This document shows positions 3,970 through 47,476 of a stretch of DNA of 64,000 nt, one piece after another. The notes below the pieces were generated by a model. That model had not been told where the DNA came from, did no database searches, and saw only the letters and a list, made by a program, of their open reading frames with translations. The DNA lies in NCBI GenBank assembly GCA_964346495.1, contig CAYFUW010000001.1, positions 23,327-87,326 of the forward strand, in the 5' to 3' direction. How positions within the stretch are numbered: position 1 is the first letter of the stretch; every line of letters begins with the position of its first letter. A program made the translations under genes and the position numbers. The stretch comes from an uncultured Dysgonomonadaceae bacterium (GTDB lineage: Bacteria > Bacteroidota > Bacteroidia > Bacteroidales > Dysgonomonadaceae).

Positions 3970-6900
3970 ATGCAACCATTTGTACATTTACACGTTCACT
4001 CACAATACTCACTTCTCGACGGACAAGCTAGCATCAAACGAATTGTTGACAAGGCAATGAATGATGGTATGGCTGGCGTCGCGCTTACCGACCATGGCGT
4101 TATGTACGGAGTAAAAGAGTTTGTGAACTATGTAAATAGTGCAAAATCGAAAATAAAGGGAGATATAAAAAAGCTTGAGCAAGAATTGGAAAAGAAACCA
4201 ACCGATGAAAAAATTGCTAAAGAGATTGAAAAACTAACTGCAAAACTAAATTTTAAACCAATAATCGGTTGCGAATGTTATTGTGCACAACGAGGCAGAT
4301 TTGAGAAAAGCGACAGCAAAGTAGATGGTAGCGGCTGGCACCTGGTAGTTCTGGCGAAAAATCTAAAAGGGTACAAAAACCTGATAAAGATTGTATCCAA
4401 AAGCTGGACCGAAGGGTACTATTATCGTCCGCGAATCGACAAAGAGTTGTTGCAAGAGTATCGCGAAGGACTTATTGTTTCGAGTGCATGTTTAGGTGGA
4501 GAGATTCCACGTAAAATAGAAAACGGCGATATAAGAGGTGCGGAAGAGGCTGTACAATGGTTCAAAGATGTTTTCGGAGACGATTTCTACTTAGAGATGC
4601 AACGCCACAAAGCTACCCGTCCCGATGCCGACCACTCAACCTTTCCAAAACAACAACGCGCCAACGAAGAGATTTTAAAACTCAGCAAAAAATTTGATGT
4701 GAAAGTTATAGCCACAAACGACTCTCACTTTGTTGACGAAGAGGATGCCGATGCACACGACAGGCTTATTTGCCTTAGCATGGGCAAAGATTTTGACGAC
4801 CCCGACCGTATGCGCTATACCAAGCAGGAGTGGCTGAAAACAACGGCAGAGATGAATCAAATATTTGCCGATATTCCTGAAGCGTTGAGCAACACTTTAG
4901 AGATTGCCAATAAAGTCGAGATATATTCAATAGATAATCCGGCTCTTATGCCATTCTACCCTATCGACCCATCTTTCGGCACCGAAGAGGAGTACAAAAC
5001 ACGCTTTACGCAGGAACAACTAATTGAAAAGTTTGGAGAAAAAGCTTATAACCGGGTGGGTGGATATGACAAAGCCATCAGAATACTGCTAGAATCGGAC
5101 TACTTGCGCCACCTGACATATTTAGGAGCCAAGAAAAAATATGGCGAAGAGCTATCACAAGAGGTAACAGAACGACTCGATTTCGAGCTGGAGACCATAA
5201 CTAACATGGGTTTCCCCGGATATTTCCTTATCGTTCAGGACTTTATTAATGCTGCACGAGAAATGGATGTGGCGGTTGGTCCCGGACGAGGTTCTGCTGC
5301 AGGCTCTGCTGTGGCATACTGTCTGGGAATTACCGATATCGACCCACTAAAATATCACCTGCTTTTCGAACGTTTCTTAAATCCCGACCGAATTTCGATG
5401 CCCGATATCGATATCGATTTCGATGATGAAGGAAGAGATAAAGTTCTGCAATGGGTAACCGATAAGTATGGTCACGAAAAGGTAGCGAGAATTATCACAT
5501 ACGGCACAATGGCTACAAAATCATCTATTAGAGATGTTGCCAGAATACACAAATTGCCACTGCCCGATGCCGACAGATTAGCCAAATTAGTACCCGACCG
5601 TATTCCCAACGTGAAAAAAGTAAATCTCGAGGCAGCAATAAATAATGTTCCCGAACTAAAAGAAGCTGCACAAAGCAACGACCCTATACTTGCCGATACA
5701 ATTAAGTATGCTCAAATGCTCGAGGGAAACGTACGAAATGTGGGTATGCACGCGTGTGGCGTTATTATCGGACAAACAGATATTTCGGATATTGTTCCTA
5801 TCTCCACAATGGATGATAAGGATGGCGAAAAACTTCTGGTAACACAATACGAAGGCTCTGTAATTGAAGAGACAGGCTTGATAAAAATGGACTTCCTTGG
5901 GCTGAAAACTCTAACTATCATTAAAGATGCGATAAATAATATTGAAGCCACAACCGGAAAAAAGATAAATATTGACGATATACCGTTAGATGATGCCAAA
6001 ACTTACGAATTGTATAGTAACGGGCAAACAACGGGAACATTCCAGTTTGAGTCGGCAGGAATGCAGAAGTATTTGAAAGAGCTGAAACCGACCAAGTTCG
6101 AAGACCTTATCGCGATGAATGCCCTTTATCGTCCCGGACCAATGGATTATATTCCATCTTTTATCGCTCGTAAGCATGGCAGAGAAGAGATTAGCTACGA
6201 TATTCCTGTTATGGAAAAGTATCTGAGCGAAACTTACGGAATTACGGTATATCAGGAGCAGGTGATGTTACTTTCCAGATTACTTGGCAACTTCACACGC
6301 GGAGAATCTGACGAGTTGCGTAAAGCGATGGGTAAAAAGCTTGCCGATAAAATGGCTCCGCTGAAGATGAAATTTATGGCTGGAGGAAAAGAGAACGGAC
6401 ACGACCAAAAAAAACTGGAAAAGATATGGGCAGATTGGGAAAAATTTGCTTCATACGCTTTCAATAAATCGCACGCCACATGTTATTCGTGGGTTGCATA
6501 CCAAACAGCCTGGTTGAAAGCAAATTACCCGTCGGAATATATGGCATCGGTGCTTTCGAACAACTTAAACAACATTTCCGAAATCACCAAGTTTATGGAC
6601 GAGTGCAAAGCCATGGGAATAAATGTGCTTACGCCGGATATAAACGAATCGGTATTGAAATTTTCGGTAAACAAACAGGGCGACATTCGTTTCGGGTTGG
6701 CTGCAATTAAAAGTGTGGGACAAAATGCAGTTGAGAGCATTATCAGCGAGCGGGCGGAAAACGGACCGTTTACCGATATTTTCGACTTCGTAGAGAGAGT
6801 AAACCTATCGGCTTGCAACAGAAAAAATATAGAATCTATGGCTTTAGCGGGAGCTTTCGACTCGTTACCAAACATAAAACGAGAACATTTTGCAAGCTCC

Positions 6901-8150: not shown

Positions 8151-8444
8151 AAGTAGCAACTAATTTCAAATTAGCAGCTACTTTATTCTGATAAAGTCGG
8201 GATTGCAAATCCCTCAGACAAGTCTTTGTGTTTTGATTCTTTCGTCTGTTCTTTTTTTTGACGAAGGCACAGCCATCGTCTCCTCGAAGCGCAGCGGAGA
8301 TCCCGATGAGCAAAGCGATTTCGGGATACATTCCCGCTTTCACGGGAATGACGTCTGGCGAATATAAATCTCACTTTGTTCGAAATAACAAGGAACACCT
8401 AAACCCGAAACGGGCAACTCGAAACACGTAACTCATAACCCGTT
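8151..8444. repeat. Mosaic repeat array
   Basis: In order: module I 8151-8183, module A 8196-8219, inverted AAGACAC heptads 8221-8250, module D 8262-8283, module E 8329-8353, heptads 8396-8444. Confidence 0.75.
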
Positions 8445-8448
8445 TAAC

Positions 8449-8487
8449 AAAAAAACAGTCGGCAACCATGTTACCGACTGTTTTTTT
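8449..8487. terminator. Bidirectional hairpin terminator (serves the DUF2795 gene)
   Basis: An A7 run is followed by the stem ACAGTCGGCAAC / GTTACCGACTGT and then a T7 run. Confidence 0.7.
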
Positions 8488-9966: not shown

Positions 9967-10380
9967 TTTGCTGTTGGTTATTAGCTTTTAGCCTTTGGCT
10001 TATGACACCAATAATAAAAGTTTTTGTATGAAAAATGAAATTTGATAGTCGGGATTACAAATCCCTCCGAGCAGGGGCGCAAAGTCTCTTCTCGTTTTAT
10101 CACATATTCTCCAAATCGCCCTCTCTCCCATTCGCACAGTCTCCCTCTCTTCAAGTCTCGTAACACGCAATCCGAAACCCGCACCAACTACATACTACAA
10201 ACTACACACTACCTACTTCATGTTACTATTAGACGCGGCATGCCACGTCTCTACTTTTTGAACACGATACCTTTGATTTCGTGATAATTTAACGTAAGCA
10301 CAGCCATCGTCTCCCGCAACTCGTAACACGCAACACGCAACTACTACATACTACCCACTCCAAACTACACACTAACCTCA
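9967..10380. repeat. Mosaic repeat array
   Basis: In order: TTAGCTN heptads 9967-10001, module A 10048-10071, heptads 10158-10227, module B 10231-10254, the 45 bp module 10260-10304, module D 10294-10314, heptads 10321-10376. Confidence 0.75.
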
Positions 10381-29733: not shown

Positions 29734-29781
29734 ATCGTTTAAATTTCGTCCGAAAGATACGAAAAAAAGAGTGTATTTTGC

Positions 29782-29789
29782 TATATTTG
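29782..29789 (+). promoter_or_regulatory. -7 box upstream of comB
   Basis: TATATTTG lies 20 nt upstream of the ATG at 29810. Confidence 0.45.
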
Positions 29790-29809
29790 CAACCAAACTC
29801 AGTAAAAAT

Positions 29810-30520
29810 ATGAAAGTTGATATCTGTTTTTCTCCTGCACTCTACCCTTTTTATCGGAAAGATAATGAAACGGTAATTATTGTTGATATTTTCCGTGCGT
29901 CAACGACCATTTGCGCCATGTTGACCAATGGAGCATCGGCGGTTATTCCTGTGGCTGATATAGAAGATGCAAAGCTATATAAATCGCAAGGATATTTGGT
30001 TGGTGCTGAACGAAACGCGAAAAGATGCGAATTTGCCGATTTTGGAAACTCTCCTTTCGATTATACAAGAGAAATAGTGACAGATAAAGAGATTGTTTTT
30101 ACCACAACAAATGGCACTCAAGCTATCGATGCTGCCAAAAATTGCAATAACATGTTTATTGGTGCCTTTTCCAATATAAGTGCATTGGCGGAAAAGTGCT
30201 TGCAATTGGGCGAAGATATTTTAGTATTGTGTGCAGGATGGAACAACACGGTAAATATCGAGGATATGCTGTTTGGCAGTGCATTAATAGAAGAGTTGGG
30301 AAAAAATATCGATATTGAAATTAACTCGGATGCTGTGAAAATTGCCAATCATTTATGGAGCGATGCAAAAGAAAATCCTATCGATTTTCTCAGAACTTCA
30401 GAACATTACAAGCGATTAGTAATGAGAGGTGCGGAAAAAGATATTGAGTTCTGTTTTTTGAGAAATACAACTTCCATTGTGCCATACTATAATAAGGAGA
30501 CAAAGAAAATAATTATTTAA
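29810..30520 (+). CDS. comB: 2-phosphosulfolactate phosphatase family protein
   Basis: The motif VDIFRASTTI matches the ComB family. The start at MKVDI lies 20 nt after a TATATTTG box. Confidence 0.72.
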   Translation: MKVDICFSPALYPFYRKDNETVIIVDIFRASTTICAMLTNGASAVIPVADIEDAKLYKSQGYLVGAERNAKRCEFADFGNSPFDYTREIVTDKEIVFTTTNGTQAIDAAKNCNNMFIGAFSNISALAEKCLQLGEDILVLCAGWNNTVNIEDMLFGSALIEELGKNIDIEINSDAVKIANHLWSDAKENPIDFLRTSEHYKRLVMRGAEKDIEFCFLRNTTSIVPYYNKETKKIII

Positions 30521-30533
30521 TTTGCTAATTTTT

Positions 30534-30941
30534 TAGACAAAAGACGCAAGAATCAAGACACAAGACACTTTGTTTCTCGCAAATAAAGCAAAGATTAGTC
30601 GCAAAGTTTTTTTACAACGCTCCCGCGCGAATCCTTCGCGTGGAACATTTAATAAACCGGGATTACAAATCCCTACAACAAGAGGGCATTGCGGTTGCAA
30701 TCCGCATTGCCTTTTTTTTGTTTTAGGCATCTCGCAGGAAACGATTGCTGTGCCTTCGCCAAAATTATCACGAAGCCAAAGGCATCGTGTCCCGATAATA
30801 GAAGAGACGTCATATTATGGCGTCTCAAAATCTAAACCACATAGACACATAGGGTAAAGATTTGCTCTGTGTTGTCGGGATTGCAAATCCCTTCGAAGTG
30901 AAAGAGTTATTTTTGGGATTTCCGCTTTCGCGGAAATGACG
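30534..30941. repeat. Mosaic repeat array (densest in the window)
   Basis: In order: modules G, F, A, a hairpin with T8, the 45 bp module, degenerate B, A and E (coordinates in findings). Confidence 0.8.
30684..30719 (+). terminator. Hairpin plus T8 run inside the repeat array downstream of comB
   Basis: The stem pairs GGGCATTGCGG with CCGCATTGCC and is followed by TTTTTTTT. Confidence 0.55.
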
Positions 30942-30991: not shown

Positions 30992-31034
30992 CAAATTAGA
31001 TAACAACCAATAGCCAACTTCTAAAGGCTAAATA

Positions 31035-32848: not shown

Positions 32849-32915
32849 CAAATTAGCTAACAGCCAATAGCCAAACTTCGACAAACTCAGTAGCCGAATG
32901 GCAAAAGGCTAAATA

Positions 32916-34571
32916 TTATTTTGCAATAATAACTTTCTCTACAGTCTGTTTATCATCTGTGGTAGTTATTACCATATGATAAATACCGTTTGTTAAAGAA
33001 GATACATCTATTTGATTATCAAACAATCTTGCATTAACAACTTGTCCTAAAGAGTTATACAAGGTTACATGTTTAATATCTCCTTTTACGAATAATATAT
33101 CTGTAGCCGGATTTGGATATACTTTTACACCGTTAATTTCCGCATCCCCAATATCCGTAACAATAGTTGTACAGATAAAGTCGGATGTACAATGTGCCGC
33201 TACTCTTCTGACACAATATTCATATTCACCTTCGGGAACATTCAAATCCGTATAATGATTTACTTCCAGGTTGTTTGCTATTTCAACACCATTTCTAAAT
33301 AAATCATAAGTAAAACCTCCCGGCATAGATGCATAAACAGATACATCATCAAGATTAATTCTAAATTCGTCGGAAGTGTTAAAGTGACGGAAAGCTATAT
33401 ATTTTGTATCCATTGGTAGATCAATAATTCTTTCGTACCATACTCCTTGTGCGTTTGTGCCACGTTCTCCTCCGTTTTTATCTCCTTTTGCCGTTAATGT
33501 CTCTTCAAACACAATAGTAAAATCAGAAGCATTTGTTCCGGTAGATGATGCCATAACCGCGTAATGCTCTGCAGGCCAATCAGCATCTTGCGCTGAAACC
33601 CAAAATTGAACACTTTTTGGGAAAGCGTCAAACTCGTCAAATACTTGGGGAGTGATTAAATAGTTGTCCGGATTTAGAGGCATTCCGCCAACCCATGATG
33701 CAGACGTTACTAAACCTATTCCGCTATGACCTGTATAGTCAGAAGAATTAACAGCCCACCAGTTGTATCCGTCACCATCGGCATCAATTGTTATCCATCC
33801 ATCAGGCATAGTACCACCACCGTGTTCCAGACCTTCAAAATCTTCTTCAAATACTACTTGTTTCGTAAATTTGGTTGGATCATCGTACCACGTTACTTCA
33901 ATATTATCTCCTACAGCAACTGCTTCAATGTTATCAGGCGGGAGACAATCAGGTGCCGCATCTACACATACCTGTTCTGAAACACAATCGTTGTAAAGTG
34001 CTTCTATACAATAATGTATAGTTCCTTCCTGACCTCCTTCATCTACATATACAAGCACATTCGGATCTTCTATAAAAGCAAGAAATTCTGAATTTTTATA
34101 CAACTTATATCCGGTAAGGGTGCTGGTTGTATTGTCTGTATTCGGTTTTTCCCAAGTTAGTGTTCTGGTCCAAATTTCTACTTCGCAAGCAAAATTAGTT
34201 GGTGCATTACAATCTCCAACAGGCATAGCATTAGTAGTTACACAAGCAGGTACCGAAATACAATCAGGATCTGTATATACTACAACAACACAGTATTCAT
34301 GCTCACCCACAGTTGCTTCCCAATCTGTATATTGAGTTGCTGTAAGGCCTGTTATCAATTCTATGTTATCTCGCATTACAGTATAGGTATAGTTCCATTG
34401 TTTAGATGCATTGACTGCATCACTTTGCGCTGAATCAGATATTACAGATTTACTGCTAACAGGCGGATCCCATGTAATAGTTACGGGCGCACCTATTTCT
34501 CTGGTTCCTGTTGCTTTTAGCATAAATACTGATAAAAGCAAGGTAAAAAATAGTAGAGTAGATTTTTTCAT
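32916..34571 (-). CDS. T9SS cargo, choice-of-anchor-J / cleaved-adhesin-like domain protein (paralog 2)
   Basis: Roughly three-quarters of residues look identical to paralog 1 by eye. The last 70 aa differ at only 3 positions. Confidence 0.8.
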   Translation of the reverse strand: MKKSTLLFFTLLLSVFMLKATGTREIGAPVTITWDPPVSSKSVISDSAQSDAVNASKQWNYTYTVMRDNIELITGLTATQYTDWEATVGEHEYCVVVVYTDPDCISVPACVTTNAMPVGDCNAPTNFACEVEIWTRTLTWEKPNTDNTTSTLTGYKLYKNSEFLAFIEDPNVLVYVDEGGQEGTIHYCIEALYNDCVSEQVCVDAAPDCLPPDNIEAVAVGDNIEVTWYDDPTKFTKQVVFEEDFEGLEHGGGTMPDGWITIDADGDGYNWWAVNSSDYTGHSGIGLVTSASWVGGMPLNPDNYLITPQVFDEFDAFPKSVQFWVSAQDADWPAEHYAVMASSTGTNASDFTIVFEETLTAKGDKNGGERGTNAQGVWYERIIDLPMDTKYIAFRHFNTSDEFRINLDDVSVYASMPGGFTYDLFRNGVEIANNLEVNHYTDLNVPEGEYEYCVRRVAAHCTSDFICTTIVTDIGDAEINGVKVYPNPATDILFVKGDIKHVTLYNSLGQVVNARLFDNQIDVSSLTNGIYHMVITTTDDKQTVEKVIIAK

Positions 34572-35166: not shown

Positions 35167-35369
35167 TTAGCTGTTAGCTGTTGGCTATTAGCTTTTGGCA
35201 AGTTATGTCTGTTTTAGTAGATAAACCAAATACACAAATACTAATTACCAAAACAACTCCATATACTACGAAACATCTTTTATCAGACATTCTCGAATTC
35301 GGGCAAAAAAAGCATTCTCGCTTTCTCTAAACTTACCACAGTCGCTCCCGCGCGAATCCTTTCGCGTGG
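35167..35369. repeat. Mosaic repeat array
   Basis: TTAGCTG heptads lie at 35167-35201, a G-free CA-rich tract at 35221-35269 and module F at 35343-35369. Confidence 0.65.
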
Positions 35370-36897: not shown

Positions 36898-39855
36898 ATG
36901 AAAAAATTATATACCACTCTATTTTTCCTTTTTACAACAATAATATTATTATCGGCTCAAAATGAAGCCAATTTGTTCAGACAGGCAAATAAAACTGAGA
37001 TGAATCGTTGGGTTGATTCGGTTTACAACAGTATGAGTCTGGATGAAAAAGTAGGACAACTTTTTATGCCGATTGCCGAGCCAAACAGTAGCTGGAAAGG
37101 GCGAATCGGCAACTATATCAACAACCAATATGTAGGTGGATTACTTTTTTCCGGTGGAACCATTACGGAGCAAGCCGAAATTACAAATTATGCTCAAAGC
37201 ATATCCAAAACACCACTTTTCATAGCAGTTGATGGTGAATGGGGGCTGTCGATGCGATTGAAAGATGCACCCAAATTTCCCAGAAACTTCGTTATTGGTG
37301 CTATTCAGGATGAAAATATTATTAAAGAGTATGGTAAAGAAGTTGCGAGACAGTGCCGCGCAATGGGAATCCATATCAATTTTGCTCCGGTTATGGATGT
37401 GAACAGCAATCCGCAAAATCCGATTATCAGAACACGCTCATTTGGCGAAAATCAGGAAAACGTTGCCAAAAAAGGTATAGCCTACTCTGCCGGATTGGAA
37501 GAGGGTGGTGTAATGTCAGTTGCCAAACACTTCCCGGGACATGGCGACACATCAGATGATTCACATAAAACTCTTCCAACCATTAGTCACAATTTAAATA
37601 GATTGGAAAGCATTGAGCTATATCCATTTAAAAAGTATATCGAAAAAGGTTTTTCGGGTATGATGGTCGGTCATTTGAATGTTCCTGCACTCAATACGAA
37701 AGGTTTGCCTTCATCGCTGTCGGAAAATGTTGTGCAAAAATTATTGAAAGAGAAAATGGGTTTTCAAGGATTGGTATTTACCGATGGAATGGCAATGAAA
37801 GGTGTTTCAAATCAACCCGATATGAGTGTTAAAGCCATACTTGCCGGAAACGATATTATTTTGGGTGTGGTGAATCAAGAGAAAGAGTTTAATGCTGTTA
37901 AAACTGCTGTAAATAAAGGTGTTATTTCTATGCAACTTTTAGAAGAGAAGGTGAAAAAGATTTTGGCATATAAATTCATCTTGAATGTACACCAACAAAA
38001 ACCTATTGAAACAAAAAATCTTTCCCAACAACTGAACACGACGAAAACAGAATGGGTACAAAGAAAAATATATGAAGGCGCACTTACTCTTATCAAAAAC
38101 AACCAAAACAGAGTTCCAATAACCGGATTGGATAACACAAAAATTGCCGCAGTTTGTATAGGCGGTGGAAACTCTGCATATAAAAATCAACTGAAAAAAT
38201 ATGCAGATATTACCTTTTTTGATGTTGCTTCGATGGAGAATTTATCCGGAATAATATCTAAACTTTCAAGTTTTGATTTAATTATTTTTTCAGTTCATTC
38301 GGATAAGTTAGTTGATAACACATCACTTCAAAATTTAACCAAAAACGAAAAATCAATTCTTGTACTATTTGCGTCGCCCTACCGATTGAATAACTTTAAA
38401 ACTTCTGTTTCAAATGCAAATAGTGTTTTAGTAGCTTTCGATAATAGCGAATGGGCACAAATATCTGCCGCGCAAGCACTATTCGGCGGAATCGCCATAA
38501 ACGGCAAACTGCCTGTAACTGTGGGAAATTACAAAGAGAGCAGAGGTATTGACACCAAAAAAACCAGACTATCCTACTCTCTGCCCGAAGAACTAAATAT
38601 TCCAAGCAACGCTTTCAGTTTTATAGATAATATTGCGCAAGAAGGAATTAAGAGCAGAGCATATCCGGGATGTTATGTTTTGGTAGCGAAAGATGGAGCA
38701 ATAATCTACAGCAAAGGGTTTGGTAATTTTGATTATAGAAGTGCTTCGAAGAAAGTCGATGATGAAACGGTTTACGACCTTGCATCAATTACAAAAGCAG
38801 CCGCTACTCTACCTGCAATAATGAAACTGTACGACGAAAAAAAACTTCGTTTGCAAGATAATTTATCGAAATTTGTCCCGGAAACACGTGGCAGCAACAA
38901 AGCAAATATTACTATCAGAGATGCGCTTCTGCATGAAACAGGAGTTATCTCTTTTATACCCTATTACACTGTGGCAATTGACACCGGGAGTTATCAGGGA
39001 AAGCTTATTAGTAACAGATCATCGTCAATTTATAATGCCAGATATGCAGGAGCTTACGGCAGAACCGATTACAAATTTATTCCCGAATTTATTTCAACAC
39101 AACCTTCGGAAAAATTTCCTTTTCATGTGGCAAAAGATATGTATGCCAGCGATAAAATGGAAAAAGCATTGCTGAAGGAGATAATTTCTACCAATCTGAA
39201 ATCGAAAACATACAGATATAGCTGCCTGAATTTTATGTTTTTGAAAGAGGTTGTTGAAAATATTGCCGACACTGACCTAAACAGTTATGTAAGAAGCAAT
39301 TTCTTTGAAAAGTTGGGTGCATCTTCTACAACATTTTTACCGCTAAAATATATGTCGGTAAACGATATTGCGCCTACCGAAAACGACCCGTTTTTTCGCA
39401 AACAGCAACTTCGCGGATATGTTCACGATGAAGGAGCTGCACTTTTTGGAGGAATTTCGGGAAATTCGGGACTTTTTTCTAATGCCAACGATTTGGCTAA
39501 ATTGTGCCAAATGTGGCTAAACGGTGGAGAATATGGTGGCGAACGATATTTGAGTATCGAAACTGTCAAACTTTTTACGCAAACAAAAAGCAGCAGAAGT
39601 CGTCGTGGCTTAGGATTCGATAAACCTGAAATAAGTGCAAGCAAATCAAGTCCTACAAGTCCGCTTACACCAATTTCTGTTTACGGACACACAGGATTTA
39701 CGGGAACATCTTTTTGGGTTGATCCTGATAATCAGATGATATATATATTTTTATCAAACAGAGTTTTTCCCGAACGTTCACCCAACAGATTGTCATCTAT
39801 GAAAATCAGGGAACGGATTCAGGAAGAGCTGTATAAAGTTTTTACAAGACAATAG
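36898..39855 (+). CDS. Fusion protein: GH3 (NagZ-like beta-N-acetylhexosaminidase) N-terminal part plus serine beta-lactamase/PBP4*-like C-terminal part
   Basis: The GH3 part carries KHFPGHGDTSDDSH and the serine hydrolase part carries the SxxK motif ASITKAAAT. A signal peptide is present. Confidence 0.83.
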   Translation: MKKLYTTLFFLFTTIILLSAQNEANLFRQANKTEMNRWVDSVYNSMSLDEKVGQLFMPIAEPNSSWKGRIGNYINNQYVGGLLFSGGTITEQAEITNYAQSISKTPLFIAVDGEWGLSMRLKDAPKFPRNFVIGAIQDENIIKEYGKEVARQCRAMGIHINFAPVMDVNSNPQNPIIRTRSFGENQENVAKKGIAYSAGLEEGGVMSVAKHFPGHGDTSDDSHKTLPTISHNLNRLESIELYPFKKYIEKGFSGMMVGHLNVPALNTKGLPSSLSENVVQKLLKEKMGFQGLVFTDGMAMKGVSNQPDMSVKAILAGNDIILGVVNQEKEFNAVKTAVNKGVISMQLLEEKVKKILAYKFILNVHQQKPIETKNLSQQLNTTKTEWVQRKIYEGALTLIKNNQNRVPITGLDNTKIAAVCIGGGNSAYKNQLKKYADITFFDVASMENLSGIISKLSSFDLIIFSVHSDKLVDNTSLQNLTKNEKSILVLFASPYRLNNFKTSVSNANSVLVAFDNSEWAQISAAQALFGGIAINGKLPVTVGNYKESRGIDTKKTRLSYSLPEELNIPSNAFSFIDNIAQEGIKSRAYPGCYVLVAKDGAIIYSKGFGNFDYRSASKKVDDETVYDLASITKAAATLPAIMKLYDEKKLRLQDNLSKFVPETRGSNKANITIRDALLHETGVISFIPYYTVAIDTGSYQGKLISNRSSSIYNARYAGAYGRTDYKFIPEFISTQPSEKFPFHVAKDMYASDKMEKALLKEIISTNLKSKTYRYSCLNFMFLKEVVENIADTDLNSYVRSNFFEKLGASSTTFLPLKYMSVNDIAPTENDPFFRKQQLRGYVHDEGAALFGGISGNSGLFSNANDLAKLCQMWLNGGEYGGERYLSIETVKLFTQTKSSRSRRGLGFDKPEISASKSSPTSPLTPISVYGHTGFTGTSFWVDPDNQMIYIFLSNRVFPERSPNRLSSMKIRERIQEELYKVFTRQ

Positions 39856-39863
39856 ACTTTTTA

Positions 39864-39940
39864 TTTACGATTTGGGATTTCGGATTTACGATTTATAAAA
39901 AAGGGAGACGATGGCTTTGCCTTCGTTACAAAATCCCGAC
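39864..39940. repeat. Mosaic repeat array
   Basis: Heptads TTTACGA TTTGGGA TTTCGGA TTTACGA TTTATAA come first, then inverted module D at 39903-39925 and a half copy of module A at 39928-39940. Confidence 0.65.
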
Positions 39941-41088: not shown

Positions 41089-41138
41089 CAAAACTTGTAA
41101 CCCGAAACACGCAACACGTAACTCGTACCACAAAAAAA

Positions 41139-42206
41139 CTAATAAATCATTATCGCCCTAAGTTTTTTCCTTTTGTCTTGAGTTAGGTTAAGTTCTTTTT
41201 CAAGGTATTTATCTACCGAACCATATTTTTTATTTATATGTTCAATAGCGTAAACCAAATATGCAGTGTTTACGGAAAGCAAAGCGGTAATAGCTTCCTG
41301 AAGATGTTCCGGCATATCATGTGCACTTTCAACTATAGTAGAGATATCTATCAATTTGCCCGAAAGCATATAATCTTCAATAATAACTGCATCGGAAGCA
41401 TCCAGAGCATACAAAACAAGAAAAGATGCTATCCCTACCCTATCTTTACCCAAAGAACCGACCAATACAATAGGATAATTATCATCATCGACCATTATAT
41501 TAAACATCTCTCTGAACTCTTTTTTGTTGTTTTCGATAATAGCAACATAGGAGTTTTGCACATAACTAATAGCGGCACTTCTCGTCATATTCTCTTCATC
41601 TTCGTCAATCTCATCAATTATTGCTTCTAAATCCATTAACGAAACCGGAAGAGATATTTTTTTTATAGAAGGGTGCATCAAAATTGGATATTTTGCTTTG
41701 CTTTTTTCTGAACGAAAATCAATAATAGTTTTTACACCTAATCTTCTGATTCGTTCCTGGTCGTAAAGCGTGGCACTACTCAAATCGCCAGATCTGAATA
41801 TTTTACCCCATTTCAATTGACTGTTGTTTTTATTAAAATAACCACCCAAATCTCTGAAATTTTTCACTTTTCCCATTTCAATAACTCTATTCGAAACAAT
41901 TCCTGAATAAACACTATTTGCTTTCAGAATGAAAAACTTTCTTGTATCGGGATTGGAAATGGTGATTTCGGTTACCTGGTCGGAGATTGACATGGTTTTA
42001 ACCGGAGTAAAATTTTCAAGTGAAACATCTTCACTCGACGAATAGATATCAATATCCCCTTCTTGGTCGGGACTAACTTCCCATTTGAGCAAAATATTAC
42101 CTTCTTCGTTTTTTTCGGCTACCGATGTTATTTGCACTGTTGAAGCACAACCATAAAAAACGAACGAAATCAGTATTAAAAAAGATATATTTTTCAATTT
42201 TGCCAC
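41139..42206 (-). CDS. Lipoprotein with a tyrosine-phosphatase-like (Y_phosphatase3) domain lacking the catalytic Cys
   Basis: It has a lipobox (FYGCAS) and the motifs FRDLGG and FRSGDL. The P-loop reads VLVGSLGKDRVG instead of the canonical HCxAGKDRTG. Confidence 0.68.
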   Translation of the reverse strand: MAKLKNISFLILISFVFYGCASTVQITSVAEKNEEGNILLKWEVSPDQEGDIDIYSSSEDVSLENFTPVKTMSISDQVTEITISNPDTRKFFILKANSVYSGIVSNRVIEMGKVKNFRDLGGYFNKNNSQLKWGKIFRSGDLSSATLYDQERIRRLGVKTIIDFRSEKSKAKYPILMHPSIKKISLPVSLMDLEAIIDEIDEDEENMTRSAAISYVQNSYVAIIENNKKEFREMFNIMVDDDNYPIVLVGSLGKDRVGIASFLVLYALDASDAVIIEDYMLSGKLIDISTIVESAHDMPEHLQEAITALLSVNTAYLVYAIEHINKKYGSVDKYLEKELNLTQDKRKKLRAIMIY

Positions 42207-42781
42207 AATTAGTCAGTTTTATCAAGCAAATGTATATAAAAACATTTACATTTAATTTTAAAAATCAGCACTCTTAACAATAAATAATCAGTTTACGCCA
42301 CTTTTTTTAATAGTTTAAAAGTTAGATGATTGTATAAATAAGTTTTAAATATTACTTTTACCAATAAATTAAAATTTGTTCTTTTATTATTGTTGATAAG
42401 TTGTTAATTGAATGTGTGAAAGATTTGATAAATTAATTTTTTAAATCGAAATAAAATTTGTAAGCAAAAAATTTATCTAAAAAACCAAATTAGTTATTCT
42501 TTTTTATAAAGTTTTTCTTCACTTTTTCTTAACAATAAAATCGTAACAAAAACGAAATAATTTATCAACAAAATAATTATTAACAGTTTTAATTGACTTT
42601 ATTTTATTTAATTGATATTCATAAAAATAATATGATTAACTTTGTTGATAACATTTTAATAAGTGAGAGTAATATTTTTAATATTCAAATTTAAAAATTA
42701 ATAGCGTAAAATCTTTCAACACTATCAACAGACAATTATTATCATCATATATTTTTTAAATTAATAAACTATATATTTATT
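42207..42781. other. Unusually long, extremely AT-rich spacer with DnaA-box-like 10-mers; candidate replication origin (hypothesis)
   Basis: The 575 bp spacer has no ORF. TTATCAACAA or its complement occurs at 42390-42399(-), 42562-42571(+) and 42642-42651(-), plus CTATCAACA at 42722-42730. Flanking genes diverge from this point. Confidence 0.3.
42227..42234 (-). promoter_or_regulatory. -7 box upstream of the phosphatase-like lipoprotein gene
   Basis: The reverse complement reads TACATTTG, 21 nt upstream of the start. Confidence 0.4.
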
Positions 42782-44822: not shown

Positions 44823-45926
44823 ATGGCTTTACAATGCGGAATAGTAGGACTTCCAAACGTTGGTAAATCAACTCTTTTCAACTGTTTATCAAATGCTCGT
44901 GCACAAGCGGCAAACTTTCCGTTTTGCACTATTGAACCCAACGTGGGAGTTATTACCGTTCCCGATGAACGATTAAATAAATTGGCTGAATTGGTTAATC
45001 CACAACGAATTGTGCCAACAACAATAGAAATTGTAGATATTGCAGGATTGGTAAAAGGTGCGAGTAAAGGCGAAGGATTAGGAAATAAATTTCTGTCAAA
45101 TATTCGTCAAACCGATGCTATAATTCACGTGTTGCGTTGTTTCGATGATGAAAACGTAACTCATGTTGATGGTTCTGTTGACCCTGTTCGTGATAAAGAG
45201 ATTATCGATTCCGAATTGCAACTGAAAGACCTTGAAACTATCGAATCACGTATCCAAAGAGTAGAAAAACAGGCAAAAACAGGAGGCGATAAAGATGCTA
45301 AATTGGCTTTTGAAGTGTATAGCAAAATTCGTGAAGTTTTACTTCGTGGAGAATCGGCTCGTGTTGTTACTTTCGATACAAAAGATGAAAACAGAATAGC
45401 CAAAGAGTTGTTTTTGCTAACATCGAAACCCGTTTTGTATGTTTGTAATGTGGATGAAAAAAGTGCAGTATCAGGAAATAAACATGTTGAAGCCGTTCGC
45501 GAATCGGTTAAAAATGAAGATGCCGAAATTTTAGTTGTAGCAGCAAAAATAGAATCTGAAATAGCTGAGTTTGAGACTTATGAAGAGCGAGAAATGTTTC
45601 TTTCAGAAATTGGATTGGAAGAATCGGGAGTAAGTCGTTTAATAAAATCGGCTTATAAATTATTGAATCTGCTTACATATTTTACTTGTGGAGTGCAGGA
45701 AGTTCGTGCATGGACTTTTGAAAAAGGTTGGAAAGCACCGCAATGTGCCGGAGTTATTCATACCGATTTTGAAAAAGGTTTTATTCGTGCTGAAGTTATT
45801 AAATACGAAGACTTTATCAGTTTTGGTTCGGAAGCAGCTGTAAAAGAAGCGGGAAAAATGAGTGTTGAAGGCAAAGAATATGTTGTTCAGGACGGCGATG
45901 TGATGCATTTCAGATTTAATGTTTAG
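44823..45926 (+). CDS. ychF: Ribosome-binding ATPase YchF
   Basis: Motifs GIVGLPNVGKSTLFN and a TGS C-terminus (DGDVMHFRFNV) are present. Confidence 0.95.
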   Translation: MALQCGIVGLPNVGKSTLFNCLSNARAQAANFPFCTIEPNVGVITVPDERLNKLAELVNPQRIVPTTIEIVDIAGLVKGASKGEGLGNKFLSNIRQTDAIIHVLRCFDDENVTHVDGSVDPVRDKEIIDSELQLKDLETIESRIQRVEKQAKTGGDKDAKLAFEVYSKIREVLLRGESARVVTFDTKDENRIAKELFLLTSKPVLYVCNVDEKSAVSGNKHVEAVRESVKNEDAEILVVAAKIESEIAEFETYEEREMFLSEIGLEESGVSRLIKSAYKLLNLLTYFTCGVQEVRAWTFEKGWKAPQCAGVIHTDFEKGFIRAEVIKYEDFISFGSEAAVKEAGKMSVEGKEYVVQDGDVMHFRFNV

Positions 45927-45933
45927 TTTTTTG

Positions 45934-46075
45934 TAGAACAAAGAGCAAAGAATCAAGACACAAGACTTTTTTATTTGCAATTATTTTGTTCGCTTCTGCG
46001 CGAATCCTTTCGCGTGATATTTACCCAACTATAAAGCAAATAGCCAATGGCTAATAGCTAACAGCCAATAACAAC
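45934..46075. repeat. Mosaic repeat array
   Basis: AAGANNC heptads lie at 45934-45968, module F at 45991-46017 and TAGCCAA-type heptads at 46034-46075. Confidence 0.7.
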
Positions 46076-46096: not shown

Positions 46097-47476
46097 ATGA
46101 AAAAGTTGTTTTATTTCTGTCTATGTTTTTTGCCATTTCTTTTTTCATGTAATAATAAGGAAAAGTCATCTTATGATTTCCCACAAATCATTGAGAAAGA
46201 TACACTTCGTATTATTACTTTAAACACATCAACATCTTATTTTATCTATCGTGATCAGGAAATGGGTTATCATTACGATATGATAAACAATTTCTGTAAA
46301 AAACATGACCTTGAGCTACAAGTTATTGTAGCTCAAAACCCTAATATGCTTATTCCGATGCTTCAAAGCGGTGTAGGCGACGTAATAGCATATAATGTTC
46401 CGGTAGATAATCAGCTAAAAGATTCACTTATTTATTGCGGATTAAATGAAGTTTCTCATCAAGTTCTTATACAACGCAACTTAAAGACAGATACCTTAAT
46501 TATCGACGTAACTCAACTGATAGGCAAAGATATACATGTTGTTAAAAACACCAAGTTTGAGCAGCGTATGCAAAATTTAAACGCTGAATTAGGCGGTGGT
46601 ATTGAAATAATTTCTAATTCGGAAGATACCATTGTTACTGAAGATTTGATTCGTATGGTTTCGTCGGGAGAGATAAAATATACTGTTGCAGAACATAAAC
46701 TTGCACAATTAAATCAGACCTATTTCAAAAATATCGATATACATCTGCCTGTAAGTTTCGACCAACGCACTTCGTGGGCAGTACGAAAAGATATGCCTAT
46801 ACTTGCCGATTCACTCAATAGTTGGTTTCAGCAGTGGAATTCTGAGCCAAGTCATTTCAGAATTACAAAACGCTATTTTGAAGAAGCAAAAGGTTTTTCA
46901 TCTAAATCGATATTATCTGACTACGATATTATTTCGCATGGAGTTATTTCGCCATTCGATGTCTATTTTAAAAAATATGGAAAAGAATATGGTATCGATT
47001 GGCGATTGTTGGCATCAGTTTCATATCATGAATCTACATTTAAAACCGATGGCGAATCGTGGGCAGGAGCTATCGGATTGATGGGTTTAATGCCACCTAC
47101 AGCAGCAGCTCTTGGTGTATCGAAAGAAGAGTTGTTTGATCCCGAAATAAATATCAAAACCGGAGCAAAATATTTGAAAAGTCTTATAAATATCTTTTCA
47201 TCGATAGAATCACACGACGAGCGTATAAAAATGGCATTAGCTTCTTATAACGGTGGTATCGGTCACATAGCAGATGCACGTGCACTTGCCGAAAAATATG
47301 GTGCCGATAGAAATGTTTGGGATGGAAGTGTAGAAAAATACGTGCAACTGAAACGTTTAGAACAATATTATAAAGACCCTGTTTGTAAAGCCGGATATTT
47401 CAGAGGTGATGAAACAGTGTTTTACGTAAAAACAGTTATGGAACGCTGGGCGATGTATAAAGCGAAAGTAAAATAG
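46097..47476 (+). CDS. MltF-like lytic transglycosylase (solute-binding-like domain plus SLT domain)
   Basis: It has a signal/lipobox, an SBP_bac_3-like N-terminal half, and SLT motifs ESTFKTDGES, GLMGLMP and SYNGG. Confidence 0.8.
   Translation: MKKLFYFCLCFLPFLFSCNNKEKSSYDFPQIIEKDTLRIITLNTSTSYFIYRDQEMGYHYDMINNFCKKHDLELQVIVAQNPNMLIPMLQSGVGDVIAYNVPVDNQLKDSLIYCGLNEVSHQVLIQRNLKTDTLIIDVTQLIGKDIHVVKNTKFEQRMQNLNAELGGGIEIISNSEDTIVTEDLIRMVSSGEIKYTVAEHKLAQLNQTYFKNIDIHLPVSFDQRTSWAVRKDMPILADSLNSWFQQWNSEPSHFRITKRYFEEAKGFSSKSILSDYDIISHGVISPFDVYFKKYGKEYGIDWRLLASVSYHESTFKTDGESWAGAIGLMGLMPPTAAALGVSKEELFDPEINIKTGAKYLKSLINIFSSIESHDERIKMALASYNGGIGHIADARALAEKYGADRNVWDGSVEKYVQLKRLEQYYKDPVCKAGYFRGDETVFYVKTVMERWAMYKAKVK

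Follow-up and report, generated by a model that had tools for sequence, protein, structure and literature searches.

Tandem repeats of heptanucleotide units have been known in bacteria since 1990, when they were recognized as short tandemly repeated repetitive (STRR) sequences; the STRR units of heterocystous cyanobacteria are CCCCAGT, TTGGTCA, and CAACAGT. To our knowledge, tandem heptamers have no accepted origin or function, and the four-helix-bundle proteins of intervening sequences, known as S23p, are equally unexplained. Here we describe degenerate heptamer tracts in a 64-kb stretch of DNA from an uncultured Dysgonomonadaceae bacterium (hereafter the window, that is, the whole stretch that was analyzed) and their relation to small S23p-type genes of the PF05635 family.

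Several described systems are comparable. Heptamers with the units GGGAATC in Xanthomonas and GGGGAYT in Nostoc show a preference for about four units and are placed on the coding strand, 0-50 bp past stop codons (Rehm et al., 2015, PMC4692102). One array from the supplement of that study (repeat 15, GGGAATCGGGAGTGGAGAATCGGGAATC, GGGAATC x4) has bccP (XCC0517) at a distance of 6 nt and extends over the annotated start of XCC0516; the authors drew no link between the repeats and the S23p gene (PMC4692102). The XCC0516 protein is the S23p homolog solved as structure 2GSC. In another report, heptamers of Nostoc were described chiefly in the vicinity of promoters and start codons (bioRxiv 10.1101/2022.06.06.494920). 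Arrays of TAACTGA are present in Beggiatoaceae, in cyanobacteria, and in five Bacteroidetes including Paludibacter (Bacteroidales), Flexibacter, Gramella, and Aequorivita, with a patchy distribution that suggests transfer (MacGregor, 2015, PMC4679880). Finally, the intervening sequence (IVS) in helix 45 of the Coxiella burnetii 23S rRNA contains an S23p open reading frame (ORF), a 28-bp terminal stem, and three to four GACAGAT heptamers at the RNase III site, the number of which varies among strains; ORF-bearing 23S rRNA IVSs, which are excised by RNase III, also occur in Leptospira and Brucella (PMC4990558).

The window corresponds to C1:23327-87326 of an assembly of 2.14 Mb (140 contigs, 37% GC). 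This genome is referred to below as G000, the 41 sampled relatives that were compared with it are designated G001, G002, etc., and C61, C64, C80, etc. denote PF05635 cassettes; gene and stop-codon positions are based on our own greedy ORF calls. We propose, with a probability of roughly 0.6, that the heptad tracts of the window are gene-less "solo" arrays of the 5'-arm type that belong to a family of IVS-like cassettes.

Heptad arrays and their anchoring at stop codons

The tracts for which an earlier note on this DNA had proposed a 7-nt phase all exist as read, with three small deviations in the spelling of their units: the tract at 45941-45968 reads AAGAGCA AAGAATC AAGACAC AAGACTT and belongs to the family of the tract at 30541-30568 without being identical to it, 31004-31017 reads CAACCAA TAGCCAA, and 46041-46068 reads TAGCCAA TGGCTAA TAGCTAA CAGCCAA. 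The three stretches described as G-free contain no G in 40, 45, and 49 nt, respectively. Tandem Repeats Finder (TRF) reported period 7 at 10187-10221, 10315-10341, 10343-10374, 30535-30568, 35167-35193, 39863-39895, and 41097-41131, and period 14 at 46035-46070. Autocorrelation over the whole 2.14-Mb assembly revealed identity peaks at lags 7, 14, and 21 in intergenic DNA (0.321 at lag 7 versus 0.305 at lag 6 and 0.308 at lag 8); coding DNA has period 3 only. In the 226 kb of intergenic DNA, TRF detected 236 period-7 arrays compared with 19.4 in dinucleotide-shuffled controls (~12-fold excess), together with 76 versus 4.8 arrays of period 14 and 21 versus 1.8 arrays of period 21, and the 7-nt phase is maintained in hundreds of additional copies. 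After merging, the tracts of these three periods number 412 and cover 12.0 kb. Since this amounts to only ~5% of the spacer length, the statement that heptads are a major component of the spacers was too strong, although the tracts are frequent. An assembly artefact is excluded because the ispF spacer is base-for-base identical in contigs from two other sequencing runs, which were found by exact-protein lookup. The period-7 tracts are real, and their description as non-coding, dispersed, multi-family tandem heptads that are STRR-like in kind is confirmed.

Five main families of arrays were distinguished, which are spelled on the coding strand as AAGANNN, GATTTNN (equivalent to TTTNNGA), GKTNCGN, TGTAGTN, and TTRGCYN; the latter three were previously spelled as NCGNAAC, ACTACAN, and TAGCCAA, respectively. 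Each unit combines four to five near-invariant core positions (1.5-2.0 bits) with two to three free positions (0.2-0.7 bits), and the number of units peaks at 3-4 (21-28 nt) in all five families. The AAGANNN and GATTTNN arrays have fixed edges, in the order T-run, TAGAnnn, (AAGANNN)3-4 closing with AAGACTT, and T-run. Units of the AAGANNN, GATTTNN, GKTNCGN, and TGTAGTN families are devoid of GGG runs. The fraction of identical units in the AAGANNN family is 0.059 for adjacent units versus 0.058 between arrays, and in the GATTTNN family the neighbors are even less alike (0.063 versus 0.135). Neighboring units are no more alike than units of separate loci, and thus they are not fresh products of slippage; the arrays are copies of family-type elements with a constrained periodic core.

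The position and the strand of the arrays are set by stop codons. Within 20 nt past the stops of long ORFs, the ratio of sense to antisense arrays is 25:0 for AAGANNN, 18:1 for GKTNCGN, 12:0 for GATTTNN, and 8:1 for TGTAGTN; within 50 nt, the five main families are found 34, 26, 13, 8, and 19 times in one orientation versus 1, 1, 0, 2, and 1 times in the other (100 versus 5). A family-independent profile gives a lag-7 identity of 0.35-0.37 at nt 0-29 past stops versus ~0.31 at lags 6 and 8, an excess that decays beyond ~40 nt and is much weaker upstream of start codons. An array is present within 40 nt of the stop codon in 89 of 1719 genes. Neither a G-versus-C strand test nor a per-family orientation test in co-directional spacers detected any bias, which becomes visible only by distance to the nearest stop. 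In keeping with this rule, the window tracts at 30541, 45941, 39864, and 41094 start 8-20 nt past stops on the coding strand. The array at 10321..10376 (minus strand) starts 1 nt past the stop (10378-10380) of ispF, a gene identified by PF02542, and consists on the coding strand of (TGTAGTN)x5 followed by (GTTNCGN)x3, the families of cassettes C61 and C64.

Because no terminator fits between the stop and the array, the stop-proximal arrays must, from their geometry, be transcribed as the start of the 3' untranslated region (UTR). The CA-rich, G-free strand of the window tracts is the antisense strand, and therefore a transcript of the flanking genes would carry its GU-rich complement. The suggestion of an unstructured CA-rich RNA thus referred to the wrong strand, and low structure is not common to the families. 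Depending on the family, 28-nt arrays have a mean minimum free energy (MFE) between -0.1 and -9.7 kcal/mol, which rules out a role as an unstructured spacer. A three-frame stop barrier was likewise ruled out, as GKTNCGN arrays were seen by inspection to contain no stop codons in any frame.

PF05635 cassettes and solo arrays

The earlier note missed both the stop-codon anchoring and the link of the arrays to PF05635 cassettes. A profile search identified ten genes of ~120 aa in the genome that encode PF05635 (23S_rRNA_IVP)/TIGR02436 four-helix-bundle proteins (S23p, Avd-like); in a control, PF05635 was also detected in Bacteroides thetaiotaomicron. All ten are bracketed by a heptad array upstream and a complementary array downstream, and each of the ten 5' arms abuts or contains the stop codon of the same-strand upstream gene. 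Every cassette has its own core, such as AAGACAC/GTGTCTT in C80, GTTNCGN/NCGNAAC in C64, TGTAGTN/ACTACAN in C61, GATTTGG/CCAAAAT in C11, CACAGAT (also TACAGAA units) in C33, and AATTACN in C16b, and the two arms pair in MFE folds of the cassettes. The cassette sites lie between protein-coding genes, not in a 23S rRNA helix; the flanking pairs include methylmalonyl-CoA mutase with UbiA, GlnS with a TPR protein, and a lysine-aminomutase-like gene with an unknown gene. The C80 protein matches the Xanthomonas S23p pentamer 2GSC (XCC0516) at E 1e-23, the match of a cassette protein to Avd (NF033474) is weak and distant (E 5e-5, below the cut-off), and the gene for RNase III (rnc) is present in the genome. 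Judged by their sequences, the cassettes share the build of the ORF-bearing 23S rRNA IVSs.

The same architecture was found in 32 further cassettes from 14 relatives. Arm complementarity, scored as z against shuffles, has a median of -3.1 in the family and -4.1 in the phylum versus -0.08 for control small genes; raw RNAduplex energies of the 130-nt flanks gave no separation from controls. The C80 locus is common to G000, G001 (truncated), G002, G006, G007, and G015, and the C11 locus to G000, G001, G002, and G006. At orthologous cassette loci both arms change in step, for instance among AAGACAC, AAGAACA, AAGARCC, and TAGACTN. Protein clades track the arm core: CGNAAC arms characterize the clade (100/99 support) that unites C64 with proteins of G001 and of G039, a member of a different family in the order. 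A search across the phylum, built on a two-sequence protein alignment, retrieved 79 loci of the C80 clade from Flavobacteriales, Cytophagales, Sphingobacteriales, and Bacteroidales. A strong period-7 window is present in the flank of 71% of these loci, compared with 1-3% at lags 6 and 8 and 0% in control loci, and the core is always AAGA upstream and TCTT downstream, despite protein identity down to ~45%. Furthermore, a same-strand ORF precedes 77 of 78 C80-clade loci, with the start of the array at a median of 3 nt past the stop of this ORF.

The genes and the arrays are also co-distributed among the 41 relatives. All 10 relatives without PF05635 have zero matches to all three array patterns, whereas 26 of the 31 relatives with PF05635 have such matches (hypergeometric P ~3e-6, uncorrected for phylogeny, which is ignored in all our cross-genome gene/array statistics). 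Orthologs of the C11 clade occur in five of six GATTT-rich genomes and in none of those with at most three GATTTNN x4 windows. Among the sampled genomes, the number of period-7 arrays per 100 kb is highest in G000 (~18) and G009 (~16), compared with 2-5 in array-poor relatives; lag-7 estimates from 100-kb samples of relatives are noisy (SE ~0.013) and indicate a trend only.

The families of the window tracts match the cassette arms (TGTAGTN matches C61, GTTNCGN C64, AAGANNN C80, and GATTTNN C11), and solo arrays are nearly all in the 5'-arm orientation; no PF05635 ORF was found in the 64-kb window. A comparison of TRF consensus units with arm units (at most one mismatch) was uninformative, as 67-90% of random 7-mers also match. 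Four cassettes have expanded solo families of 97, 48, 37, and 23 arrays. The orthologous 3' flanks in G001 and G002 are mostly without arrays (lag-7 correlation of 0.07), and past the ispF stop G001 has GTAAACN, the arm family of one of its own cassettes, in the place of TGTAGTN and GTTNCGN in G000; solo arrays thus appear to turn over fast. The ispF spacer could not be aligned with those of congeners at 85% coding identity, and a metagenome scan for closer strains returned nothing above 77% aa identity.

The anatomy of the arrays, their anchoring, strand bias, and core constraint, the architecture of the cassettes, and the gene/array co-distribution are all observed; on them we base the following model. 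A complete cassette consists of a four-helix-bundle gene that lies between two co-directional host genes with arrays on both sides. As the 5' and 3' arrays are complementary, the transcript can close into a stem of ~28-40 bp round the ORF, and the paired arms might serve as a substrate for RNase III, as in rRNA IVSs. The cognate cassette protein may recognize the clade-specific periodic core; its solved homolog is a pentamer, and about one heptad would be contacted per subunit. Solo arrays would be copies or derivatives of the cassette 5' arms that spread as non-autonomous elements. The previously suggested protein-binding arrays are possible in this framework, with the cassette-encoded four-helix-bundle protein as the candidate binder.

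Several observations weigh against this proposal. Approximately 90% of the arrays lack a complementary partner within 600 nt, and neither PF05635 remnants beside arrays nor transitional forms were seen; what speaks for cassettes as the proposed source of solo arrays is therefore the common family, strand, and anchoring. A search of the whole genome at E <= 10 revealed no PF05635 remnants or pseudogenes beyond the ten intact genes, and none next to arrays, so the idea that solo arrays are decayed cassettes has no support. Solo families have expanded for only four of the ten cassettes, and five others have 1-7 arrays; the TTRGCYN family (40 arrays) has no resident cassette, one being seen only in the congener G002. 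We found no mobilizing enzyme, target duplication, or terminal repeat. Across relatives, the C64 clade only partly matches the counts of CGNAMC: G001 and G029 have a C64-clade gene and no 4-unit arrays, and G006 and G015 have arrays and no ortholog. Moreover, many of the 79 loci in the phylum may be one orthologous locus rather than independent insertions, so that linkage and shared descent could explain part of the agreement of protein clades with arm cores.

The location at the start of the 3' UTR also bears on a different explanation, in which the arrays are host signals read by a host factor (an RNA-binding oligomer, an RNase, or a termination factor) that tunes mRNA decay or termination, and the cassettes merely borrow them. 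Such a role agrees with the strict placement on the coding strand 0-20 nt past stops, so that the arrays must be transcribed, and with terminator-like hairpins followed by a T-run within 200 nt at 43% of array-bearing 3' ends versus 30% of random genes. RNA recognition with a period of 7 has a precedent in HutP, which reads NAG-N4, and the GAUUU unit presumably fits the RNase E motif RN|WUU, as a candidate likeness only. However, orthologous 3' flanks within the genus do not retain the arrays, the ispF stop is followed by different families in G000 and G001, the distribution within the family is patchy, and the structure is not uniform across families. With at least five unrelated cores at one position, several readers or one sequence-blind reader would be needed. 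We consider a host signal unlikely, as it fits poorly with fast turnover and many different cores.

The similarity of adjacent units, which does not exceed that between arrays, and the confinement of variation to two or three positions per unit are at odds with ordinary heptanucleotide microsatellites, that is, replication slippage that prefers 7-nt units and amplifies arbitrary heptamers in neutral intergenic DNA, followed by decay through point mutations, with an incidental link to cassettes. So are the recurrence of few families at 20-100 loci, the orientation bias of 100 to 5 past stops, and the absence of arrays from all ten PF05635-free relatives. The slippage-prone spacer proposed in the earlier note therefore finds no support in this genome, the more so as the tract is identical in two other assemblies. 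The 3' flanks of the paralogs at 31004 and 32854, which differ only by substitutions and one 24-nt indel, are uninformative on slippage. Long near-perfect arrays in relatives, namely (AAGAGCC AAGAACC)n in G007, (CGAAACC)n in G039, and (AAGAAAT)n in G010, are in favor of slippage, as is the variation of heptamer copy number among Coxiella strains (PMC4990558). According to the summary of Mrazek (2007) in PMC4679880, heptanucleotides are the commonest class of long simple-sequence repeats in prokaryotes, for which an explanation by polymerase contacts has been proposed. On balance, we regard slippage as quite improbable.

A third explanation views the tracts as mosaic modules of the type of repetitive extragenic palindromic (REP) sequences and bacterial interspersed mosaic elements (BIMEs), spread together with hairpin modules by REP-associated tyrosine transposases (RAYTs). 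It is suggested by the heptad tracts that adjoin GTAG-tagged hairpins in spacers, for example GTAGAGACG...CGTCT and GGGATTTGTAATCCC, and by the two intact Y1 transposases encoded in the genome. However, the sequences on either side of the two RAYT genes are different palindromes rather than heptads, and the tracts are not palindromic. Matches to Y1 transposases are also absent from the array-bearing G002, G018, and G023, and several are present in G003, G011, G024, and G025, which have almost no arrays, so that RAYT-mediated spread is very unlikely. The weakest candidate, in which a reverse transcriptase adds templated repeats or retro-inserts at mRNA 3' regions in the manner of diversity-generating retroelements, whose accessory protein is Avd, could appeal to the distant relation of the cassette protein to Avd and to the strand-specific arrays at mRNA 3' regions, yet a resident enzyme is largely refuted, with no RVT_1 domain detectable in the array-rich G000, G001, G002, G006, and G007.

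Tracts of the window and accompanying elements

A scan of the window with Rfam at gathering thresholds and a tRNA scan gave no match. The genome encodes PorV, a C25 peptidase, and Por_Secre_tail of the type IX secretion system, and Petrimonas and Proteiniphilum are the closest named relatives for one of its proteins. The ispF spacer includes a second direct copy of the array at 10321..10376, a composite of TGTAGTN followed by GKTNCGN at 10158..10227 (minus strand), for which no complementary partner was found; the entire spacer folds like shuffles (z -0.40). It is followed by a GGGAGA-rich module at 10096..10157 (minus strand; CTTGAAGAGAGGGAGA...), which in a comparison by eye only resembles the 5' arm of C21 (CTTGGAGAGAGGGAGA). 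The NAGCYAA-type array at 9967..10001 (minus strand) is on the coding strand, where it precedes the ATG (9952) of a 184-aa ORF by 15-49 nt, and is partly conserved in the congener G001. Beside and between these tracts, at 10228-10320 and 10047-10070, there are hairpin modules (AGACGYGGCATGCCRCGTCT with a CTAC/GTAG tag, GGAGACGATGGCTGTGCYTWCGTT, and GTCGGGATTACAAATCCCTCCGA) that recur on dozens of contigs with 80-100% identity. They differ from the palindromes CTGCCTGAAAGGCAG, CCGCAAGTCGTTGACTTGCGG, and ACACCTTTCAGGTGT that flank the two intact IS200-like Y1 (RAYT-type) genes, which are located outside the window at C8:20899-21349 and C104:4662-5085 of G000.

The remaining tracts of the window include two solo arrays of AAGANNN x4 on the plus strand, one at 30541..30568, which is preceded by TTTTTTAGACAA and located 20 nt past the stop of the ORF 29771-30520, and the other at 45941..45968, which ends with AAGACTT and a T-run and is located 14 nt past the stop of the ORF 44823-45926. 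A solo array of TTTNNGA (GATTTNN) x5 at 39864..39898 (plus strand) is found 8 nt past the stop of the ORF 36898-39855, and a solo array of GKTNCGN x4-5 at 41094..41128 (minus strand) lies on the coding strand ~10 nt past the stop (41139-41141) of the ORF 41139-42206. Three TTRGCYN units at 32854..32874 (minus strand), of which 31004-31017 is a paralogous copy, occur on the coding strand 42 nt past the stop of the ORF 32916-34571 and just before a terminator-like hairpin; the GTTNNGN-type array at 8403..8437 (minus strand) lies just downstream of a hairpin and T-run at ~8449-8487. Two arrays precede start codons: NAGCYAA x4 at 46041..46068 (plus strand) is positioned 29 nt upstream of the ATG of the ORF 46097-47476, and NAGCYAA x5 at 35167..35201 (minus strand) ends 4 nt before an ATG on the minus strand. 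Long ORFs are mostly on the minus strand to the left of an AT-rich spacer at ~42207-42781 and mostly on the plus strand to the right of it, and the orientation of the arrays follows the genes on both sides.

Other arrangements of heptads were noted elsewhere. A dispersed unit of ~150 nt, which has inverted ends GTCATWCTGAAYG...GAAGWATCTA and contains an AAGAGCA-type array, a short linker, and a TAGCCAA-type array, is present in at least eight copies, for example on contigs C15, C18, C50, C63, C87, C110, and C118 of G000; with two heptad arrays aboard, it resembles a miniature inverted-repeat transposable element. Five pairs of facing arrays of the same family in G000 (C45:7918-8094, C55:3422-3650, C57:11970-12246, C20:10103-10405, and C2:39042-39120) have gaps of 15-239 nt, too short for a 120-aa gene, and may be "empty" cassettes. 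In G009, facing inverted GATTTNN pairs ~20-45 nt apart form gene-less heptad hairpins at more than 10 loci, such as C1:112800-112868, C3:144003-144070, and C6:327545-327619; this genome has 55 GATTTNN windows, yet no C11-clade gene at E <= 1e-15. In G039 (locus L157, C118:2375-6764), a stretch of 4.4 kb contains four long near-perfect CGNAACC arrays, and two of these lie on either side of a PF05635 gene (6212-6568), the product of which clusters with cassette C64. At locus L175 of G010, a PF05635 gene is immediately preceded by a perfect array of (AAGAAAT) with 15 or more units; thus, expansion of arms by slippage does occur in some genomes.

Comparison with described heptamer repeats and intervening sequences

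Neither this kind of repeat nor its occurrence in Bacteroidota nor the stop-codon rule is new here, because all three have been described (PMC4692102; PMC4679880). In particular, the TAACTGA arrays of five Bacteroidetes, including Paludibacter, contradict the earlier statement that no equivalent is described for Bacteroidota (PMC4679880). What is new is the link between heptad arrays and PF05635 cassettes by shared family, strand, stop anchoring, and co-distribution. Among the literature searched, S23p is named together with heptameric repeats only in the Coxiella paper (PMC4990558). In the genome studied, tandem heptamers and S23p-type genes present themselves as one system, by which two open questions become testable. 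For annotation, the tracts are to be read as coding-strand markers of the 3' ends of genes, and a small ORF enclosed by inverted heptad arrays is to be recognized as a cassette.

A broader and more tentative generalization, which we hold to be possible rather than probable, is that bacterial heptamer arrays in general are cis-elements of one ancient and widespread PF05635 cassette system, which would include the Xanthomonas GGGAATC repeats and possibly the STRR and TAACTGA sequences, and of which the 23S rRNA IVSs would be a special case that has landed in rRNA. Its autonomous form would be a gene for a PF05635 four-helix-bundle protein between inverted heptad arms. In such a system, the pentamer might read the clade-specific core on single-stranded nucleic acid, and solo arrays might be its trans targets or non-autonomous progeny.

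The window tracts differ from the known systems in several respects. As in REP, BIME, and NIME (neisserial intergenic mosaic element) sequences, the spacers are built from short dispersed modules, mostly at gene 3' ends, and REP-type hairpins co-occur with them; however, the heptads are tandem, non-palindromic, not associated with RAYTs, and tied to another gene family. They share with the STRR sequences the tandem heptads, the presence of several families per genome, and the dispersed intergenic location, whereas the units differ, no sequence homology was found between the two, and the host belongs to the Bacteroidales. The TAACTGA repeats are likewise intergenic heptamer arrays in Bacteroidetes, but they are near-perfect repeats of a single unit, mostly a few nt upstream of starts, in contrast to the degenerate, multi-family arrays mostly past stops described here. 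Closer are the heptamers of Rehm et al., which are also tandem 7-nt units in intergenic regions of many loci, with about four units, on the coding strand near stops, and with one array that adjoins the S23p gene XCC0516; unlike the arrays described here, which have no GGG and fall into at least five families, they are G-rich, quadruplex-capable, and of about one family per genome. Finally, the cassettes resemble the 23S rRNA IVSs in the S23p/PF05635 ORF in the loop of an inverted-arm stem and in the heptamers of the 5' arm (CACAGAT in C33 versus GACAGAT in Coxiella), but they are located between protein-coding genes at stop codons, and cutting by RNase III is only predicted here, whereas the window tracts, which have no ORF and no complementary arm, share with this build only the families of heptamer arms.

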